Notes under the pieces: generated by a model
The model's database searches: none
Told to the model about the DNA's origin: nothing
Seen by the model: the letters and a program-made list of their open reading frames with translations, nothing else
Origin: Escherichia coli
GTDB taxonomy: Bacteria > Pseudomonadota > Gammaproteobacteria > Enterobacterales > Enterobacteriaceae
Length of the DNA stretch: 64,000 nt
Direction: 5' to 3' (one strand)
Assembly (NCBI RefSeq): GCF_036507355.1
Contig: NZ_AP027877.1
Position numbers and translations under genes: made by a program
Shown: one piece after another, positions 20,290 through 31,314 of the stretch
Numbering within the stretch: the stretch's first letter is position 1
How the letters are laid out: the number at the start of each line of letters is the position of its first letter

Positions 20290-20440
20290 GCCCCTCCCGA
20301 GGAAGGGGCCATAAATAAGGAAAGGGTCATGATGAAGATACTCATCATCGTGGCGCTCTTAGTGATTAGCTACCCAGCATACTAAGACTACCAGGGCGGG
20401 GGAAACCCCGCTCTACCCTCACTCCTGAAAGTATGCCTTC
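20290..20440 (-). ncRNA. sib: Sib-family antisense sRNA (antitoxin) overlapping ibs copy 1; boundaries approximate
   Basis: By family knowledge Sib RNAs are about 140 nt and fully antisense to ibs; minus-strand hairpin GGCCCCTTCCTCGGGAGGGGC+TTTCCC at 20291-20320 is a candidate terminator. Confidence 0.45.
20329..20385 (+). CDS. ibs: Ibs-family type I toxin peptide (MMKILIIVALLVISYPAY)
   Basis: 18-aa hydrophobic peptide ORF with MMK start and RBS aagg, inside Sib/Ibs repeat unit. Confidence 0.8.
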   Translation: MMKILIIVALLVISYPAY

Positions 20441-20636
20441 ACGTTCAGAATGTCAATCCGCAGGCTTTGCAGTCTGCGATCCTGCCAGCAAATATTCTTT
20501 GCGAGACGTTACGCAATAATCACAGAGGAAACTATTTTGTTCACGCGTTAGCGATAGACTGAATTCAGGGCGAAAGGAGGTAAGCCGACGATTTCAGCGG
20601 GACGCTGAAACGGGAAAGCCCCTCCCGAGGAAGGGG

Positions 20637-20648
20637 CCTTAAATAAGG
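20637..20648 (+). repeat. attL core: 12-bp direct repeat CCTTAAATAAGG flanking the island
   Basis: Identical 12-mer at 20637-20648 and 30686-30697; left copy ends the sib half-unit, right copy directly precedes the ibs RBS. Confidence 0.7.
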
Positions 20649-20721
20649 TAAGTTGCACATTTAAAATCTCTTTAATTATCAATAAACTACAATGTATAGG
20701 TCATTATTAGTCAAAATAAAA

Positions 20722-21621
20722 TCATTTGTTGATTTCAATTTTGTCCCATTCTCTCCCTCGGCTATCCCTATACCGCGCCGCCATTGAATCTGATTTATGT
20801 CCGAGAAGACGTTGAGCAAACTTATCGCCAATCTGATTCCGGTATAGCCTCGCCGACAGGCTACGCAGTTCATGGAATGTTGGTGGGTCTCCATCAAATG
20901 AGAGTCCAGATGCATTTCTCGCCTTTGTAAAATACTTCGATACTGTTTTCGGGGAAAGCGGTTCGTGATGCGTTGAGGCGATTATAGTTTCACTGCCGCT
21001 GGCCTCCCTGCATTTCTGTAGTGTATCAGCCAATGAGATATTGAGCGCGTCAATCGTTAGCATCAGCGGAATGGCGAGCTTAGCCCCTGTTTTACCCTGT
21101 TCAATGTGAAGATGGTTGTCGTTTATGTCTGACCATTTCATTCTGCACAAATCGCCGACTCTCTGCCCTGTAACGACAGCCGAATCCATCGCCAGTCTTA
21201 GCCAGATTGGGAGAGGTTCGGCTGCATGGTAAATCGCGACATACTCATTAGCTGTCAGCCTTGAGCGCCTTACTTCTGACTTTGCTGTGCGGGTTGCTGT
21301 TACCGGATTCGTTTCCACATGCCCCTCGGCTATTGCCTCACGAAAAACGTCAACAAGGGTTGACCTGATTAATTTTGCGGAAGCCGCTTTACCTTCTGCT
21401 ACGTAGGTGTTTAGCATTGCTGCCACCTCTTTCGTTGATATGTCAGCGAGCGGTTTGTCCGGCAATTTTCTTCGGATTGCCCTGATTTTGCTGGCGTAGT
21501 CGAGTAGAGTTTTCGTCCTGATCCCCCTCTCGCTGAGGATTGTTTCATATCGGTCAAGCCACGCATGAAGAGTGATTACGTCAGCGCCTTTAATCCTGTC
21601 TATCAGTGAGGTAGCCTGAGT
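20722..21621 (-). pseudogene. int: Tyrosine recombinase (phage integrase), N-terminally truncated
   Basis: Catalytic-domain motifs present (…HELRSLSARLY…LLGHKSDSMAARYRD…); reading frame continues upstream of the annotated start to 21621 (…SLIDRIKGADVITLHAWLDRYETILSERGIRTKTLLDYASKIRAIRRKLPDKPL) and is cut by an IS3-family fragment. Confidence 0.75.
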
Positions 21622-22149: not shown

Positions 22150-22756
22150 TTACTCACCCTCTTTGATGCGAATGCCAGCGGCGCGTGGCACATTAACTTC
22201 CACGATGCGCACTGTTGGTTTGTACATCTCAATCGCTGTCAGCCAGTCAGCTCCTGTCATGCGCTTTTCCGCATCGCCATTAGTCCACTGAACCGGTACA
22301 CCAATAGCCTTCATCGCGATTTCTATTTCCCCGGCAATGGCGCTTTTTCCGCAACCAGTAAAACCAGAAACAACGACAAGAACTTCACCTTTGGCTGGTT
22401 TTATTTCCCGTGCTTCCAGTTCTGCAATGCGCTTACTTCCATCCGCGATTACTCCCTCGTAATATTCACGCTGCTCGTTGAGTTTTGATTTTGCTGCTTC
22501 AAGCTCAACTCTCAGCTTCCCTACCGTTAGCGCAATATCCTCGTTCTCCTGGTCACGGGATTTGATGTATTGCTGGTTTCTTTCCCGTTCATCCAGAAGC
22601 GCCAGCACGGTTGCCGGATTAGCCTTGGCAACAAAATCACGGACTGGCTTACAATCAATCTCAGCAATGGGTTGATACGATGTGTATCCATGCTGTCTTG
22701 TATAACTACCGTGACGAATAACGAAAAAATCACCATTTATTTTTTTAGCCTGCCAC
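22150..22756 (-). pseudogene. Phage-derived protein fragment with P-loop-like motif (GFTGCGKS); 5' end interrupted by IS1
   Basis: Reading frame runs into IS1 terminal bases at 22757; annotated start codon lies inside IS1. Confidence 0.5.
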
Positions 22757-22771
22757 GGTAATGACTCCAAC

Positions 22772-23275
22772 TTATTGATAGTGTTTTATGTTCAGATAAT
22801 GCCCGATGACTTTGTCATGCAGCTCCACCGATTTTGAGAACGACAGCGACTTCCGTCCCAGCCGTGCCAGGTGCTGCCTCAGATTCAGGTTATGCCGCTC
22901 AATTCGCTGCGTATATCGCTTGCTGATTACGTGCAGCTTTCCCTTCAGGCGGGATTCATACAGCGGCCAGCCATCCGTCATCCATATCACCACGTCAAAG
23001 GGTGACAGCAGGCTCATAAGACGCCCCAGCGTCGCCATCGTGCGTTCACCGAATACGTGCGCAACAACCGTCTTCCGGAGCCTGTCATACGCGTAAAACA
23101 GCCAGCGCTGGCGCGATTTAGCCCCGACATAGCCCCACTGTTCGTCCATTTCCGCGCAGACGATGACGTCACTGCCCGGCTGTATGCGCGAGGTTACCGA
23201 CTGCGGCCTGAGTTTTTTAAGTGACGTAAAATCGTGTTGAGGCCAACGCCCATAATGCGGGCTGTTGCCCGGCAT
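22772..23275 (-). CDS. insB: IS1 InsB
   Basis: 167-aa InsB ORF overlapping insA (frameshift fusion partner). Confidence 0.95.
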
Positions 23276-23469
23276 CCAACGCCATTCATGGCCATATCAA
23301 TGATTTTCTGGTGCGTACCGGGTTGAGAAGCGGTGTAAGTGAACTGCAGTTGCCATGTTTTACGGCAGTGAGAGCAGAGATAGCGCTGATGTCCGGCGGT
23401 GCTTTTGCCGTTACGCACCACCCCGTCAGTAGCTGAACAGGAGGGACAGCTGATAGAAACAGAAGCCAC
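23194..23469 (-). CDS. insA: IS1 InsA
   Basis: 91-aa [43 protein letters not shown]... Confidence 0.95.
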
Positions 23470-23548
23470 TGGAGCACCTCAAAAACACCATCATACACTA
23501 AATCAGTAAGTTGGCAGCATCACCGCCTGCCACGGTAATGACTCCAAC

Positions 23549-24052
23549 TTATTGATAGTGTTTTATGTTCAGATAATGCCCGATGACTTTGTCATGCAGC
23601 TCCACCGATTTTGAGAACGACAGCGACTTCCGTCCCAGCCGTGCCAGGTGCTGCCTCAGATTCAGGTTATGCCGCTCAATTCGCTGCGTATATCGCTTGC
23701 TGATTACGTGCAGCTTTCCCTTCAGGCGGGATTCATACAGCGGCCAGCCATCCGTCATCCATATCACCACGTCAAAGGGTGACAGCAGGCTCATAAGACG
23801 CCCCAGCGTCGCCATCGTGCGTTCACCGAATACGTGCGCAACAACCGTCTTCCGGAGCCTGTCATACGCGTAAAACAGCCAGCGCTGGCGCGATTTAGCC
23901 CCGACATAGCCCCACTGTTCGTCCATTTCCGCGCAGACGATGACGTCACTGCCCGGCTGTATGCGCGAGGTTACCGACTGCGGCCTGAGTTTTTTAAGTG
24001 ACGTAAAATCGTGTTGAGGCCAACGCCCATAATGCGGGCTGTTGCCCGGCAT
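23549..24052 (-). CDS. insB: IS1 InsB (copy 2)
   Basis: Identical to copy 1 InsB. Confidence 0.95.
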
Positions 24053-24246
24053 CCAACGCCATTCATGGCCATATCAATGATTTTCTGGTGCGTACCGGGT
24101 TGAGAAGCGGTGTAAGTGAACTGCAGTTGCCATGTTTTACGGCAGTGAGAGCAGAGATAGCGCTGATGTCCGGCGGTGCTTTTGCCGTTACGCACCACCC
24201 CGTCAGTAGCTGAACAGGAGGGACAGCTGATAGAAACAGAAGCCAC
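23971..24246 (-). CDS. insA: IS1 InsA (copy 2)
   Basis: Identical to copy 1 InsA. Confidence 0.95.
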
Positions 24247-24296
24247 TGGAGCACCTCAAAAACACCATCATACACTAAATCAGTAAGTTGGCAGCA

Positions 24297-25112
24297 TCAC
24301 CCTTCCTTGATTCTTTTTTCTTCTGCTATTCTGGCTTGCTCTTTTGCTTCAGCCTCGCGCCGGATTCGTTCAGCCTCCTCCTGTGCTTTTCTGCGTTCTG
24401 CTTCAATTGCTGCCTGCTTTTCTCTTTCAGCTCGTTCTGCTGCCTCTTTTGCTTCGCGCTGTGCTCTCTGCTCGGCTTCAATGCGTTCACGCTCTGCACG
24501 TTCCGCTGCGGCCTTAGCTTCTGCTTCTCGCCTTGCTGCTGCTTCAATTTCGGCTTTTGCCTTTGCTTCGGCTTCAGCTCTGGCTTTCTCTTCAGCTTCT
24601 CTTTTTAAGCGTTCTTCATGCTCTCGCTTTTCCTGCTCCGCTTTGAGTCTTGCCTCTTCTCTTTGGCGGTCAAATTCGCGATCCATCAAAATCGCTATTT
24701 CATGGTCAGACTCAATTTGCTTTGCGAGAGCTTCAGCTGCTGCCTTAGCTTCTTCTTCGGCTTTAATCCGCGCCTGTTCTTCCTCATAATCAGTAAGAGG
24801 CTGGCGCGCCTTGGCTTTCAGTTCATCAAGGCGATCGCGCACTGTCTTGCGGTTGGCATCAATTAGCTTTGGAATTTCCTTCAGTTCAGCAACAAGGTCT
24901 TTGCCAAGACCATCGAGATATGTTTTCGTCTGCGCAACTTTATACGCCAGAGAAGCGATCTCCTTTCTGCCCTTTGCCGTTGTGATATCAGGCACAAAGG
25001 ACATAACTTCACGTTCAACCTTTTGAAGGATTTCTTCAATCTGGTCGGCAGACTGAAATACAGTCATTGCATTTGCTTTTTCAATAACAACTAAATCTGT
25101 TACTTCACTCAT
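24297..25112 (-). CDS. Phage-associated coiled-coil protein with long K/E/A/R-rich repeat region; 3' end abuts IS1, stop codon created at junction
   Basis: ATG with strong RBS ggagga at 25112; low-complexity EAKAKAE/RREAEAK repeats; frame terminates using IS1 terminal bases. Confidence 0.55.
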   Translation of the reverse strand: MSEVTDLVVIEKANAMTVFQSADQIEEILQKVEREVMSFVPDITTAKGRKEIASLAYKVAQTKTYLDGLGKDLVAELKEIPKLIDANRKTVRDRLDELKAKARQPLTDYEEEQARIKAEEEAKAAAEALAKQIESDHEIAILMDREFDRQREEARLKAEQEKREHEERLKREAEEKARAEAEAKAKAEIEAAARREAEAKAAAERAERERIEAEQRAQREAKEAAERAEREKQAAIEAERRKAQEEAERIRREAEAKEQARIAEEKRIKEG

Positions 25113-25674: not shown

Positions 25675-25959
25675 GTGCCCATGAGCGGTAAGCGTTATCC
25701 CGAAGAGTTTAAAATTGAAGCAGTCAAACAGGTTGTTGATCGCGGTTATTCTGTTGCCAGCGTTGCAACACGTCTCGATATCACCACCCACAGCCTTTAC
25801 GCCTGGATAAAGAAGTACGGTCCGGATTCTTCCGCTAATAAAGAACAGTCAGATGCTCAGGCCGAGATCCGCCGTCTCCAGAAAGAGCTGAAGCGGGTTA
25901 CCGACGAACGGGACATATTAAAAAAAGCCGCGGCGTACTTCGCAAAGCTGTCCGACTGA
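25675..25959 (+). CDS. IS3-family transposase OrfA
   Basis: 94-aa MPMSGKRYPEEFKIEAVKQVV... HTH plus leucine zipper. Confidence 0.85.
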   Translation: MPMSGKRYPEEFKIEAVKQVVDRGYSVASVATRLDITTHSLYAWIKKYGPDSSANKEQSDAQAEIRRLQKELKRVTDERDILKKAAAYFAKLSD

Positions 25960-26015: not shown

Positions 26016-26828
26016 GTGCTGGATGTTCATCCCAGTGGTTTTTACGCCTGGCTTCAGCAGCCGCATTCACAACGCCATCAGGCAGACCTGAGGCTGACAG
26101 GGCAGATTAAACAGTTCTGGCTGGAATCGGGATGCGTCTATGGTTATCGCAAAATCCATCTGGATCTGCGGGACAGCGGGCAACAGTGCGGAGTGAACAG
26201 AGTCTGGCGACTGATGAAACGTGTCGGGATAAAGGCTCAGGTCGGATACCGGAGCCCGCGGGCACGTAAAGGCGAGGCCAGTATCGTGTCGCCCAACAGG
26301 CTCCAGCGACAGTTCAATCCGGATGCTCCGGATAAGCGTTGGGTAACGGACATAACCTACATCAGGACCCACGAAGGCTGGCTGTATCTTGCCGTGGTTG
26401 TTGATCTGTTCTCACGCAAAATTATCGGCTGGTCCATGCAATCCCGGATGACAAAGGACATTGTCCTGAACGCACTGCTGATGGCTGTATGGCGCCGTAA
26501 TCCCCAAAAACAGGTGCTGGTTCATTCGGATCAGGGCAGTCAGTACACAAGCCATGAGTGGCAGTCGTTCCTGAAATCACACGGCCTGGATGGCAGCATG
26601 AGCCGTCGCGGTAACTGCCATGATAATGCGGTTGCAGAAAGCTTTTTCCAGTTGTTGAAACGCGAACGGATAAAGAAAAAGATCTACGGAACGCGGGAAG
26701 AAGCCCGCAGCGATATTTTTGATTACATCGAAATGTTTTATAACAGTAAGCGTCGGCATGGTTCCAGCGATCAGATGTCACCGACAGAATATGAAAACCA
26801 GTATTATCAACGGCTCGGAAGTGTCTAG
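26016..26828 (+). CDS. IS3-family transposase OrfB (DDE integrase domain); produced as OrfAB via -1 frameshift
   Basis: 270-aa ORF in -1 frame relative to orfA with DDE-type motifs (…WVTDITYI…HSDQGSQYTS…NAVAESFF…); frame continues back to slippery site. Confidence 0.85.
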   Translation: MLDVHPSGFYAWLQQPHSQRHQADLRLTGQIKQFWLESGCVYGYRKIHLDLRDSGQQCGVNRVWRLMKRVGIKAQVGYRSPRARKGEASIVSPNRLQRQFNPDAPDKRWVTDITYIRTHEGWLYLAVVVDLFSRKIIGWSMQSRMTKDIVLNALLMAVWRRNPQKQVLVHSDQGSQYTSHEWQSFLKSHGLDGSMSRRGNCHDNAVAESFFQLLKRERIKKKIYGTREEARSDIFDYIEMFYNSKRRHGSSDQMSPTEYENQYYQRLGSV

Positions 26829-27579: not shown

Positions 27580-29067
27580 TCACTGACAAATGTTTTTGTC
27601 AAAATCAACTACAATAATATCATCATATGAGTATAAGTTATATTCATATGCTCTTTTAATCTTTGCGGTTGAGCAAAAGGTTTTTTCATTTAACACACTT
27701 GCAATGTTTGTATTCCCAGGGTGTTTAAAGTAAACTCCAACTCTATTCATATAAGGGAATGGCCAATCCCAATTATAGAAATACTCTGGGAAAAATCTAG
27801 ATATTAACGGGTAATTATTTCGTGCGTTTACAAAAACATCATTGTCTTTCTTTTTACCATTAAAAATAAGTATCTGATTTGTTTTTCCGCTTAACTCGAA
27901 AGCATCATTTTTAATCTGATGAAACAGAACTGTGGTTATGTTTTTTTCTTCTGTCATTGCATTTGTGTATGAACATAAAAAACCAAAAACATAAATCAGA
28001 GGAATTACAAGTATATATGTTATTGAATTTTTTGTTTCTCGCGAGAAAAGATAAACAATCATGAATAAGAACAACATCGTAGCAGAAAAACCGATCATCA
28101 CTCTTGGGGCGTCGATGTGATGCTGAAGTGGTAATAGAGTAGCAAAAGACAATATCAAAGCTGTTACTGGCGATGTTATTGTAATTAAAAAATTAATAAT
28201 ACCAGTAATACTTTTATTAGGTATTAATTTCTTTAGCGCGATAAATGTCGTCATTGCAATGAAAAATAAAAATATTACTATAAACGCAACTCGTCCTGAT
28301 TCCCCAAAAATACCACTAGATATTGAATGAAGATAAAATTTTAAGTTTTCATATATAACTGAAAAAATGCCTTCAGTTTTAATTGATGGGTGATCCGGGT
28401 CCCCAACAACAGTTAAAAATAAAGGAATAACCACCAAAAAATATAATGCAACACCTATAACTAATGATACCGTCTTTTCTATGAGGTAAGTTAATAGATG
28501 TCTGTTACTATCTGAGTTAAAGTACATGTAAACATATTTACACAGAATAATAACCAGCATGAAATTTAATGATGCTTGGTATATAGACAATATAAATAAT
28601 GTTAACAGGGCGGCAAAAGAAATATTTAAAATTGTCTTTTTGAAATTAAATATTACAACTGAGAATGACAATGCAATACTCATGAACATCGGTAAAACAT
28701 CAAAGCGATACATTGCATTTTCAATTAAAAATGGGCTTGATAAAATACCAAGAGGAACCAACAGTCCAATAAATTTATTATCTGTCGATATAAACATCCT
28801 GCTAAAAAAATACAGGCAAACAGATATCAAAAATACTGATAATATTGCAGGAAATGGGAATAAGTCCGTTATGTGCATGTTGAAATTCAATGCAATCATC
28901 AACATTTCAGCCAAAGGTCTACCATCCCTAGCCCATCCAGTATACCCCCATATAGCTCTTCCCTGATCATCTACATAATGAATATTTGCCATGATGATGG
29001 GGGTGAAATATATAAAAACAGATATCAAGAACCAATGGAAAGGTGTTTTGTTTTTATTTGCAATCAT
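27580..29067 (-). CDS. GtrC-like type-specific O-antigen glucosyltransferase (polytopic membrane protein)
   Basis: 495-aa ORF, multiple TM helices, strongly AT-rich, immediately downstream of gtrB with overlapping stop/start. Confidence 0.7.
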
Positions 29068-29983
29068 TTTTCTGATCCTTTAAAACATATCTTGGGCGCT
29101 GCTTAACTTCAATATAAATACGTCCTATGTACTCTCCAAGTACACCAATACCAATTAGTTGTACGCCGCCAAGAAACAATATTGATACAAGAATTGAAGG
29201 GTATCCAGGTACATTATTACCAAAAATCAATTTATCAATTATCATCCATGAACCGTATGTAAATGATATACATGCAATAAATAACCCAATATAGGTCCAC
29301 ATGCGAAGCGGGAAAGTAGAAAAGCTAGTGATCCCTTCCAGCGCCAAGTTCCATAGCTTCCATCCATTGAACTTTGTGCTTCCTGCAACGCGTTCTGCTC
29401 GCGCATATTCTACGACATCGGTTCGACCACCAACCCAGCTCAGCACACCCTTCATAAACAGGTTTCGTTCTGGCATGAGCTTAATGTTTTCTACTACTTC
29501 GCGAGACATGAGCCGGAAGTCGCCAACATTCTCTTCTATCTGAGGGTTGCTGATTTTGTTATGAAGTTTATAGAACCACTCAGCAGATTTACGCTTCAGC
29601 CTGCTGTCAGTGGAGCGGTCAGAGCGTTTAGCCAGAACCATATCTGCACCGGCCTGCCATTTCTCTATCAAGTGAGGAATAACTTCGATAGGGTCTTGCA
29701 GATCAACGTCAATCGGGATAATTGCCTCCCCGGTAGCATGGTCCAGACCTGCGAACAGGGCGGGTTCTTTGCCGAAGTTACGTGTGAACGACAGCGAAAC
29801 CACAAGCGGGTCGGCAACAGCAAGCTCGTTGATAATTGATTCTGTAGCGTCTTTGCTGCCATCGTTTATGAAGACTATCTCGACTTCATGCTGCTGAAGC
29901 CCTTCAAATTCGCGCACGGTTTTATAAAAAATAGGTATCGTGGCCTCTTCGTTAAAGACCGGAACGACTAAAGAAATTTTCAT
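29054..29983 (-). CDS. gtrB: GtrB bactoprenol glucosyltransferase (GT2 family)
   Basis: 309-aa [16 protein letters not shown]...[10 protein letters not shown]...C-terminal TM helices; matches conserved GtrB. Confidence 0.9.
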
Positions 29984-30342
29984 TTCGCATCCCTAAAGAC
30001 AATGAACTTTGAATAGATGAAACCGCACACCAGGCTGATGGCGGAGAAGGTGACAAGAGTTATCATCGGGGGAAGTGCGCATCTATCAGCAGCCCATCCA
30101 ACAGTAGCACTGAGTGTTCCCATGAACCCGACATATAACATGTAGCGCATCGTTGTAGTTGATGCTTTGAATGTGAATTTTGCATTCGCGAAGAAGCTAA
30201 AACTCACAGCCACAACGAAACCTGCGAAGTTTGCCAGAGCCTGATTGGTATGCGCGGCATAGATACATACACCAAAAACCACCCAGTGTATAAGTGTGTT
30301 CAGCACACCAATCGAGGTGTACCTTGCAAATATATTTAACAT
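29980..30342 (-). CDS. gtrA: GtrA flippase (small 4-TM protein)
   Basis: 120-aa [31 protein letters not shown]...; overlaps gtrB start. Confidence 0.9.
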
Positions 30343-30685: not shown

Positions 30686-30697
30686 CCTTAAATAAGG
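30686..30697 (+). repeat. attR core: 12-bp direct repeat CCTTAAATAAGG
   Basis: Identical to 20637-20648; followed by aaagggtcATGATG of ibs. Confidence 0.7.
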
Positions 30698-30705
30698 AAA
30701 GGGTC

Positions 30706-30762
30706 ATGATGAAGTGGATCATCATCGTGGTGCTCTTAGTCATAAGCTTCCCGGCTTACTAA
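30706..30762 (+). CDS. ibs: Ibs-family type I toxin peptide (MMKWIIIVVLLVISFPAY), right half of the unit split by the island
   Basis: 18-aa hydrophobic ORF; upstream repeat-unit sequence replaced by island DNA. Confidence 0.75.
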   Translation: MMKWIIIVVLLVISFPAY

Positions 30763-30994
30763 GACTACCAGGGCGGGGGAAACCCCGCTCTACCCTCACT
30801 CCTGAAAGTATGCCTTCACGATAAGATTGTCAATCTGCAGGCTTTGCAGTCTGCGATCCTGCCAGCAAATATTCTTTGCGAGTCGTTACGCAATAATCAC
30901 AGAGGGAACTATTTTGTTCACGCGTTAGCGATAGACTGCATTCAGGGCGAAAGGAGGTAAGCCGACGATTTCAGCGGGACGCTGAAACGGGGAA

Positions 30995-31145
30995 CCCTCT
31001 CCCGGAGAAGAGGGCTTTTAATAAGGAAAGGGTTATGATGAAGCACGTCATCATACTGGTGATACTCTTAGTGATTAGCTTCCAGGCTTACTAAGAACAC
31101 CAGGGGGAGGGGGAAACCTCTCCCTAACCCTCACTCCTGAAATTA
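30995..31145 (-). ncRNA. sib: Sib-family antisense sRNA overlapping ibs copy 3; boundaries approximate
   Basis: Same unit architecture as 20290-20440, with hairpin gggaaccctctcccggagaagagggc upstream of the ibs RBS. Confidence 0.4.
31035..31094 (+). CDS. ibs: Ibs-family type I toxin peptide (MMKHVIILVILLVISFQAY)
   Basis: 19-aa hydrophobic ORF within complete repeat unit 3. Confidence 0.8.
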   Translation: MMKHVIILVILLVISFQAY

Positions 31146-31314
31146 TGTCACTCCGCCCTTAGTGTCAATCGACGGCTCTCCGTTCTTGCGAGGCGAATAG
31201 CAAAATTTTCTGCGCCGCCGGGACTAATTCTGAAAGTTTCTTCGTTTGCTCTTATTTCATTATTGCAGTCGGTATGATACCGGACCTTAATAATTCTCTA
31301 AGAAAGGATTTCTT

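Follow-up and report, generated by a model that had tools for sequence, protein, structure and literature searches.

In a 64,000-nucleotide stretch of Escherichia coli DNA (contig NZ_AP027877.1 of assembly GCF_036507355.1; hereafter the window), two abutted copies of IS1 lie within a prophage remnant. With a probability that we put at about 0.8, they represent a genuine head-to-tail dimer, (IS1)2, made by the IS1 transposase and coupled to the IS1-mediated loss of ~3–4 kb of early-left genes. At positions 22748–24301, a 777-bp unit composed of the 9-mer GCCTGCCAC and a complete 768-bp IS1 is exactly duplicated in tandem, and the two units (22748–23524 and 23525–24301; repeat spacing 777) are identical. 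Copy 1, an IS1A-type element at 22757–23524 on the minus strand, has its IRR at the left end and its IRL at the right end. It is preceded by the left 9-mer GCCTGCCAC (22748–22756), and the same 9 bp (23525–23533) form the spacer that joins the IRL of copy 1 to the IRR of copy 2 in an IR-IR junction. The k-mer across this junction, IRL-GCCTGCCAC-IRR, reads CAGCATCACCGCCTGCCACGGTAATGACTCC. Copy 2 (23534–24301, minus strand) is intact, as is copy 1, and 100% identical to it. To its right stands a 9-mer unrelated to the spacer, CTTCCTTGA (24302–24310), which was not found elsewhere in the window, and no further IS1 copies were found there. The first-pass annotation had described two identical, directly oriented 768-bp IS1 copies 9 bp apart with a differing right flank, and its coordinates and sequences were confirmed.

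The arrangement of the 9-mers is asymmetric, as GCCTGCCAC occurs on both sides of copy 1, whereas neither copy 2 nor the pair as a whole has matching 9-mers at its two outer sides. The repeated 9-mer may be a true target duplication or a product of dimerization, and the probability that 9 bp at a given place would match by chance is 3.8e-6. One edge of the duplication falls exactly at an IS1 terminus and the other 9 bp outside the opposite terminus, and identity beyond the 777-bp repeat amounts to 0 bases on both sides, which means that there is no microhomology. Because the edges coincide with an IS1 terminus and with the length of an IS1 target duplication, and do so without microhomology, they point to transposase chemistry rather than to slippage or misassembly.

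Both copies have the structure expected of an intact IS1, including the 768-bp length, imperfect terminal inverted repeats of ~23 bp (in each copy, 18 of 23 positions are shared between IRR and IRL) and insA/insB' with a frameshift. A 91-aa open reading frame with matches to Pfam PF03811 and PF12759 (Zn_ribbon_InsA and HTH_Tnp_IS1) is insA, located at 23194–23469 in copy 1 and 23971–24246 in copy 2. The 167-aa open reading frame matching PF03400 (DDE_Tnp_IS1) is insB, whose frame spans 22772–23275 and 23549–24052, respectively. The A6C-type -1 frameshift motif TTAAAAAAC is present at 23212–23220 and 23989–23997. BLAST matches at ≥99% carry the annotation "IS1-like element IS1A family transposase", and target duplications of IS1 have been reported as 8 or 9 bp (PMC12428005, PMC12065110). 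The pair also has the arrangement of an (IS)2 dimer, with complete copies arranged head-to-tail, IRL abutting IRR and a short spacer derived from a flank. A junction promoter of the kind known from IS911, IS30, IS2 and IS21 was considered and rejected on a consensus scan, itself a weak test, which detected no promoter spanning the IRL-IRR junction. The sole promoter-like site in that scan was internal to IRL (CTGCCA-16-TATGAT) and the same in both copies.

Both flanking reading frames are on the minus strand and each runs into IS1. On the left is an Ead/Ea22-like gene (22150–22756; PF13935, E = 2.8e-26) that is 5'-truncated, with ~59 nt (20 codons) gone from its start. An intact gene in L019 aligns with it up to and including GCCTGCCAC, after which the window continues into IS1. 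On the right is a coiled-coil gene of the early-left operon (24302–25112) that is 3'-truncated and retains 811 of 969 nt, with its frame now closing at a TGA (24297–24299) two codons into IS1. This gene has 98–99% identity over 808–811 nt to 322-aa genes in L001, L022, L024–L026 and L029, in which the position of the right 9-mer is 158 nt ahead of the stop, and the intact coiled-coil gene of E. coli ES3 reads CGTCCTTGA at that position. Two Logan short-read contigs, including one from run ERR3330519, also have this truncated 271-aa product among their called proteins. The first-pass annotation was correct in having both frames run into IS1 ends, since its P-loop fragment corresponds to a Walker-A-like GFTGCGKS inside the Ead/Ea22-like frame and its coiled-coil protein to the gene on the other side. 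Its remark that the frames would be out of register if joined is irrelevant, as they are not halves of one gene.

The left and right 9-mers are instead single-copy native sequence of two different lambdoid early-left operon genes. Comparison with related prophages, which the first-pass annotation had proposed as a means of recognizing deleted content, revealed that 2.7–4.2 kb separate the two flank points in these relatives and that the intervening genes are cIII, kil, a recombinase, SSB/Abc2 and small ORFs. Because the flanks belong to different genes that far apart in intact relatives, the prophage DNA between them is, judged by this comparison, lost from the window. This agrees with the earlier suggestion, drawn from the absence of a third 9-mer copy, of an adjacent deletion or a different rearrangement caused by IS1. 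DNA at one IS1 end is gone, the IS is kept and the repeat is missing on that side, a pattern for which an IS1-mediated adjacent deletion would account. Similarly, adjacent deletions by IS1/Tn9, which arise through intramolecular replicative transposition, remove the DNA beside an IS1 end and keep the IS, without a matching repeat there (PMC9330008, PMC11708052), so that the element is left without direct repeats (PMC9330008). In its classical form, however, such a deletion leaves one IS copy, and it would not on its own account for the second copy and the repeated 9-mer of the window. The consequence for the prophage is that its cIII/kil/recombination module is gone and two accessory genes are truncated, without an apparent gain of function. 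The remnant, which carries gtr (O-antigen modification) genes, is dispensable and decaying, and the significance of the event at this locus is very small.

We infer the chemistry and the order of events as follows. The 3'-OH of one IS1 end would have been linked to a position 9 bp beyond the opposite end of a different IS1 copy, a one-ended strand transfer of the kind that is the route to IS circles and IS-dimers in copy-out-paste-in elements. The product would be IRL-9 bp-IRR, in which the 9 bp are a copy of flanking sequence. Three histories differ in the partner and in the timing of the deletion. In scenario A, the partner would have been an earlier second IS1 in the same orientation within the coiled-coil gene, and joining of the inner ends would have deleted the interval in the same step, with the right 9-mer being a remnant of that insertion's target duplication. 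All three 9-mers would then be accounted for as target-duplication remnants. In scenarios B and C, the partner would have been a sister copy of a single IS1, and a separate adjacent deletion would have followed (B) or preceded (C) dimerization. A deletion after dimerization is thus only one of three histories of equal parsimony.

Each history predicts a different arrangement in close relatives of the source strain. Under scenario A, some would have a second IS1 junction reading ...CTTCCTTGA|GGTAATGACTCC, with the cIII-kil-recombinase segment retained between two IS1 copies. Under scenario B, the sequence would read IS1-GCCTGCCAC-IS1-GCCTGCCAC-TTATCTTCACC, a dimer next to an intact 5' end of the Ea22-like gene, and under scenario C there would be a single IS1 with GCCTGCCAC on its left and CTTCCTTGA on its right. 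We would roughly assign about 40% to scenario A, about 40% to scenarios B and C together and 20% to other routes, ~10% of it to artefact and to rivals that do not involve transposase.

Comparable structures are known from other insertion sequences. As in (IS30)2, (IS21)2, (IS911)2, (IS2)2 and (IS256)2, the pair in the window consists of complete head-to-tail copies with abutted IRL and IRR and a flank-derived spacer of a few bp. In those dimers the spacer is 2–3 bp, whereas it is 9 bp in the window and 6–9 bp in other IS1 dimers, and no junction promoter is evident here. Dimers of this type form between direct copies, with deletion of the DNA between them, or between sister copies (PMC9333248), as does IS30 in its site-specific dimerization (PMC9333248), and flanking deletions are associated with them, as in the window. 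IS1 is absent from the elements with experimentally demonstrated IS-dimers in that source (PMC9333248), and it is listed among the circle-forming copy-out-paste-in families elsewhere (bioRxiv 10.1101/2023.06.07.543989). The two direct IS1 copies are also reminiscent of Tn9-like composite transposons, the arrangement from which scenario A would start, but the pair has no payload beyond its 9-bp spacer and no 9-bp duplication flanking it. The pair also resembles excised circles of IS1 itself, which have the same IRL-spacer-IRR junction with a flank-derived spacer. The circles are free and contain a single copy, whereas the junction in the window is chromosomal and lies between two copies. Such circles were reportedly obtained under transposase overproduction by Turlan and Chandler (in 1995), Sekine et al. 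(1997) and Shiga et al. (1999), with junction spacers of 6–9 bp said to have been found in the 1997 and 1999 studies.

The pair in the window is not an isolated case. A survey with a query of 26+26 nt and a strict E-value, which replaced an 80-nt BLAST query without a spacer that was swamped by the IS1-(20–540 bp)-IS1 arrangements present in many E. coli records, identified 204 places with abutted IS1 ends among 5,426 complete E. coli genomes, of which 173 (~3%), represented by 178 records, contain them. In an evenly spaced sample of 60, the spacers were 8 bp (37), 9 bp (5), 7 bp (4) and 6 bp (3), so the 9-bp spacer of the window belongs to a minority class (~8% of the sampled natural dimers). 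An exact gapped-pattern scan of metagenome contigs revealed only three IS1-IS1 junctions, with spacers of 6, 8 and 9 bp, and the same type of scan found none in species-representative genomes or viral contigs. Flank asymmetry like that in the window occurs in L004, L009 and L042 and its mirror image in L006, L018 and L017, while L007 and L014 have fully symmetric triple flanks and L048 is an IS1 trimer. Identical dimers have been assembled at the same locus in related strains (for example AH02/AH04/CT01, and a ydiL-ydiB dimer in three strains), and many natural dimers have truncated neighbor genes. The spacer of the ydiL-ydiB dimer maps within the deleted K-12 interval, a single-locus observation with a chance expectation of ~5%.

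Several of the parsed examples are heterodimers of differing IS1 variants, proof that two separate IS1 elements can end up abutted. For most of these heterodimers, an origin as recombinant copies was rejected, as the differences run along the whole element. Transposition of a dimer as a unit, which would equalize the outer flanks, was discarded both for the window and for every dimer without a flank match. Simple joining predicts that the spacer equals one of the outer flanks, and in seven of eight heterodimers and at two homodimer loci it matches neither; extra flank-changing events, or another route, would therefore be needed for these.

The survey bears on whether the pair is real. An assembler that expanded one genomic IS1 into two would produce copies that are 100% identical, as these are, and the searches yielded no other complete assembly of the locus. 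Neither the whole structure nor the joined flanks had a record with ≥80% coverage among the 5,426 complete E. coli genomes. No independent assembly spanning the dimer was found, and look-ups of the exact truncated coiled-coil product and of the gtr glucosyltransferase gave only drafts ending at IS elements. However, the usual error of assemblers with identical repeats is collapse rather than expansion, and an artefact would not be expected to set its boundaries exactly at one IS1 terminus and exactly 9 bp beyond the opposite one, without overlap or microhomology. This architecture also turns up in complete genomes at numerous unrelated loci, and related strains that were assembled independently have it too; we regard an artefact as very unlikely. 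Least probable, to the point of being nearly negligible, is a history independent of transposase, in which slippage during replication or an unequal exchange between sisters duplicated the 777-bp segment in tandem once an IS1-associated deletion had occurred. Bacterial genomes often acquire tandem duplications, and unequal exchange can expand an existing dimer and may be the source of the trimer L048, but the edges here lack microhomology, and their coincidence with an IS1 end and the target-duplication distance would have to be repeated in ~200 dimers with spacers of 6–9 bp.

A rival that overlaps with our preferred explanation is an ordinary two-ended transposition of a second IS1 into the 9 bp abutting a resident IS1, which would generate its own 9-bp duplication without any special dimer chemistry, the resident copy having lost its own duplication earlier or later by adjacent deletion. 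Copy 1 has GCCTGCCAC on both sides like a simple insertion, 9 bp is a canonical length of an IS1 duplication, and the product would be identical in sequence to that of one-ended joining. Nevertheless, the target would have to abut an IS end to the base at ~200 places in E. coli, which implies targeting of ends rather than random insertion, and the natural 6- and 7-bp spacers are outside the reported lengths of IS1 duplications. In addition, the L018 spacer consists of 7 bp from the 9-bp duplication next to it, and in L007 and L042 an 8-bp spacer adjoins a 9-bp flank copy. We consider this second insertion unlikely, if more credible than an artefact.

No description of abutted or tandem IS1 dimers emerged from phrase searches of the literature, in which the matches were IS10 tandem repeats or IS1 composite transposons. 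The pair in the window appears to be an instance of known IS biology, an ordinary transposase-made rearrangement, of a type that appears to be little described for IS1. Its exact IRL-9 bp-IRR junction is what one-ended strand transfer would be expected to produce, and the survey shows junctions of this type to be frequent and inherited in E. coli. Such dimers would be of relevance to pipelines for assembly and IS typing, in which a single IS per site is usually assumed. Tentatively, and at somewhat less than even odds, abutted IS1 dimers and occasional trimers may represent a widespread, largely undescribed in vivo product of IS1, with a spacer spectrum (6–9 bp, mode 8) closer to that of circle junctions than to 9-bp insertions and a dimer pathway like that of IS30, IS21 and IS911. 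If so, the inner spacer would preserve a trace of the original target as the outer ends remove neighboring DNA, and dimers would drive local gene loss in lineages that are rich in IS1 and undergoing genome reduction, among them the presumably Shigella-like source of the window. Potentially, if IS1 dimers are as reactive as those of IS30 and IS911, they may help to explain the bursts of IS1-linked deletions that accompany genome reduction in Shigella-like lineages.

Exact comparison confirmed to the base that the window carries two identical 768-bp IS1 copies in tandem (22757-23524 and 23534-24301), both with their genes on the minus strand and their right terminal inverted repeat (IRR) to the left of their left one (IRL) in window coordinates. 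The 9-bp spacer between them, GCCTGCCAC (23525-23533), is the same as the 9-mer directly left of copy 1 (22748-22756), a match with a chance of 3.8e-6 at a fixed position. The 9-mer directly right of copy 2, CTTCCTTGA (24302-24310), is unlike the spacer, as the first-pass annotation had reported, and exact comparison found neither it elsewhere in the window nor any further IS1 copy there. A 777-bp unit is thus duplicated exactly in tandem (repeat family D1, spacing 777), with 0 bases of extension on either side, so that the duplication edges are without microhomology. By its sequence each copy looks functional: its terminal inverted repeats agree at 18 of 23 positions, a 91-aa ORF has the zinc-ribbon and HTH domains of InsA, a 167-aa ORF has DDE_Tnp_IS1, and it carries the frameshift motif TTAAAAAAC.

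The dimer lies within a heavily eroded prophage remnant of ~10 kb (~20.7-30.4 kb), which occupies the sib/ibs toxin-antitoxin locus, with mdtA at one end and the yegL side at the other; K-12 carries sibA/sibB there. SIB_RNA (RF00113) was found on the minus strand on the mdtA side (20314-20456) and in two copies, also on the minus strand, on the yegL side (30691-30833 and 31020-31168), and a shared ORF translation suggested an additional sib-like repeat at ~20548-20682; the phage may have integrated in or beside such a repeat. The remnant includes a truncated integrase (247-aa ORF, 20722-21465), an IS3-family fragment from 21671 that we take to be IS600-like, with orfA and a truncated orfB abutting the 3' end of an Ea22-like gene, and a second IS3-family element (25.6-26.9 kb; orfA 25675-25959, orfB 26016-26828), as well as a possible tail-fibre fragment, recognised by eye without a family match. 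At the far end is a gtrA-gtrB-gtr(type) O-antigen glucosylation cluster (27580-30342, minus strand) encoding proteins of 120 aa (gtrA, PF04138), 309 aa (gtrB, PF00535) and 495 aa (type-specific glucosyltransferase, PF14264), a module with which serotype-converting phages modify the O-antigen. Exact matches to the 495-aa glucosyltransferase are on record in only 16 contigs, all of them drafts.

The two ORFs that flank the dimer, each encoded on the minus strand, are genes of a lambdoid prophage early-left (pL) operon. What had been described as a P-loop fragment proved to be an Ead/Ea22-like ORF (22150-22756; PF13935, E=2.8e-26) that carries GFTGCGKS and abuts the left IS1 end. Its identity to an intact homologue (L019) extends through GCCTGCCAC inclusive, beyond which the intact gene continues with TTATCTTCACC... 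for ~59 nt up to the start codon. The coiled-coil ORF on the right (24302-25112), whose frame had been seen to run into IS1, matches a 969-nt (322-aa) gene of many E. coli prophages at 98-99% identity over 808-811 nt; the homology begins at the IS1 boundary, where the intact ES3 gene reads CGTCCTTGA, and the 3' end of the window ORF is short by 158 nt relative to the 969-nt gene. As judged from these alignments, GCCTGCCAC and CTTCCTTGA are each single-copy sequence native to a different gene, and since the two ORFs are different genes, the earlier remark that they would be out of frame if joined has no bearing. The break points are 2.7-4.2 kb apart in three intact relatives with both genes (L026, L022 and L025), which carry between these points cIII, kil, a Rad52-like or ERF recombinase, SSB, the anti-RecBCD protein Abc2, DUF2737 and small ORFs. 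None of these genes lies between the window flanks, and the interval has therefore been lost; alignment to related prophages, which the first-pass annotation had proposed, thus both bore out the additional IS1-associated rearrangement it suspected and identified what was deleted.

None of 5,426 complete E. coli genomes has the window structure, and other assemblies of the locus are all drafts that are broken at IS elements and end at the second IS3-family element. That absence from the complete genomes, taken with the gtr genes and the IS load, hints at a Shigella-like origin of the window. Two Logan short-read contigs, one of them from run ERR3330519, also have the right junction (IS1/coiled-coil). 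It is very unlikely that the dimer is an assembly artefact, as assembly software collapses identical repeats and does not multiply them, one edge of the duplication is exactly at an IS1 terminus and the other exactly 9 bp past the opposite terminus, and abutted IS1 architecture is common at other E. coli loci.

The extent of that architecture was surveyed with a 52-nt query, the last 26 nt of IS1 joined to its first 26 nt, at E<=1e-6, a cut-off at which a single 26-nt arm cannot score by itself. Abutted IS1 ends were found at 204 places (170 chromosomal, 34 plasmid) in 178 records from 173 of the 5,426 complete genomes (3.2%). Spacers in 60 records sampled at even intervals were of 8 bp (37), 9 bp (5), 7 bp (4) or 6 bp (3), with a few odd cases, and those of three metagenome junctions were 6, 8 and 9 bp; IS1 circle-junction spacers are likewise 6-9 bp. 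Related strains that were assembled separately have identical dimers at the same locus, which shows that dimers are heritable. Very short IS1-bounded segments are also common in E. coli: ~335 records have two head-to-tail IS1 ends within ~540 bp, most with 20-540 bp between them (e.g., 33 bp in BL21-derived strains).

Twenty-three junctions, representing 20 distinct loci, were fetched and parsed. One of these, L016 (E. coli H2, NZ_CP010163.1 ~3324705-3325549), was rejected as a true dimer; it is a 769-nt frameshifted IS1, 1 bp and an IRR-end IS1 fragment, adjoining an sHSP20 gene, and at least 14 further records have a similar arrangement that scores as an abutted junction. Among homodimers, the flank was repeated on every side in L014 (9/9/9) and L007 (9/8/9), and E. 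coli M21170 (L048, NZ_CP133919.1 ~327319-329640) has a perfect trimer, in which AACACATGG plus IS1 occurs three times before a final AACACATGG, with three identical 768-bp copies of a variant 68 nt different from the window IS1. The window's asymmetry recurred exactly in L004 and L009, and in mirror image in L006, L017 and L018, the spacer of the last matching 7 of 9 bp of the right-hand repeat. The spacer matched neither flank in L040 or in a ydiL-ydiB homodimer of three strains (L043-L045; 8 bp). Eight heterodimers joined clearly different IS1 variants (8-74 differences, in most cases over most or all of the element); one (L042) has the window's pattern (9/8), and the other seven (L005, L008, L010, L013, L015, L041 and L046; 9-74 differences, 6-9 bp spacers), from E. 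coli chromosomes, plasmids and one metagenome contig, match at neither flank.

The geometry of the window junction points to transposase chemistry, because the joining lies a target-duplication length beyond the opposite IS1 end and the spacer equals a flank: one IS1 end would have been joined to DNA that far outside the opposite end of the other copy. IS1 target duplications are of 8 or 9 bp (PMC12428005, PMC12065110), and IS1 is among the circle-forming copy-out-paste-in families (PMC9333248; bioRxiv 10.1101/2023.06.07.543989). In the "site-specific dimerisation" of IS30, inverted repeats of two direct copies are joined and the DNA between them is deleted, and it also occurs between sister copies after replication (PMC9333248). 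Three histories, each of three events, would yield the exact window sequence, and we do not rank A against B or C. In A, insertion of one IS1 into the Ea22-like gene would have duplicated GCCTGCCAC, and insertion of a second, in the same orientation, into the coiled-coil gene would have duplicated CTTCCTTGA; joining the IRR of the second to a site 9 bp beyond the first one's IRL would then delete the interval and leave the observed flanks in a single step. In B, one insertion would be followed by sister-copy dimerisation, giving three 9-mers as in L014 and L007, and by deletion of the DNA adjacent to the outer IRL, an event classical for IS1 that leaves no direct repeat (PMC9330008). In C, the insertion would be followed first by the adjacent deletion and then by a dimerisation using the left flank.

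The heterodimers show that two different IS1 elements can end up side by side, as in A, and the triple-flank homodimers and the trimer show single-element dimerisation, the first step of B. An ordinary two-ended IS1 insertion exactly into the 9 bp abutting a resident end is possible and would give the same sequence, but one-ended joining is a better fit to the spacers of 6-7 bp, the 9/8/9 case and the 7-of-9 case found at other loci. Neither-flank dimers, notably seven of the eight heterodimers, are predicted by no simple joining or insertion model, and would need further flank-changing events or some other route. The 8-bp spacer of the ydiL-ydiB dimer is found at one place in K-12 ydiM (L049, position 5523), correctly oriented and inside the interval lost by the three strains; this match, at a single locus, has a chance of ~5%. 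This suggests that a spacer can be a surviving piece of the original target, with deletions spreading outward on both outer sides.

The window structure, a tandem dimer made by IS1 together with an IS1-associated loss of DNA from a dead prophage, belongs to known IS biology, and we saw no sign of a new function at it. A consensus scan, a weak test, found no promoter assembled across the IS1-IS1 junction and only the internal IRL site CTGCCA-16-TATGAT, the same in each copy. The elements shown to form dimers are IS21, IS30, IS2, IS3, IS150, IS1470, IS911, IS256 and IS1655, a list from which IS1 is absent (PMC9333248). Phrase searches of the literature for tandem or dimeric IS1 returned no description of abutted IS1 dimers, the matches dealing with IS10 or IS1 composite transposons, and one laboratory-evolution study involving IS1 speaks of IS amplification "through tandem duplication" but gives no detail in its main text (PMC12065110). 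Abutted dimers are thus documented for other IS families and apparently not for IS1, whose spacers (9 bp in the window, 6-9 bp among IS1 dimers) are longer than the 2-3 bp of classical IS-dimers. The only broader lead is that IS1 dimers were common in our survey and have a characteristic spacer spectrum of 6-9 bp.
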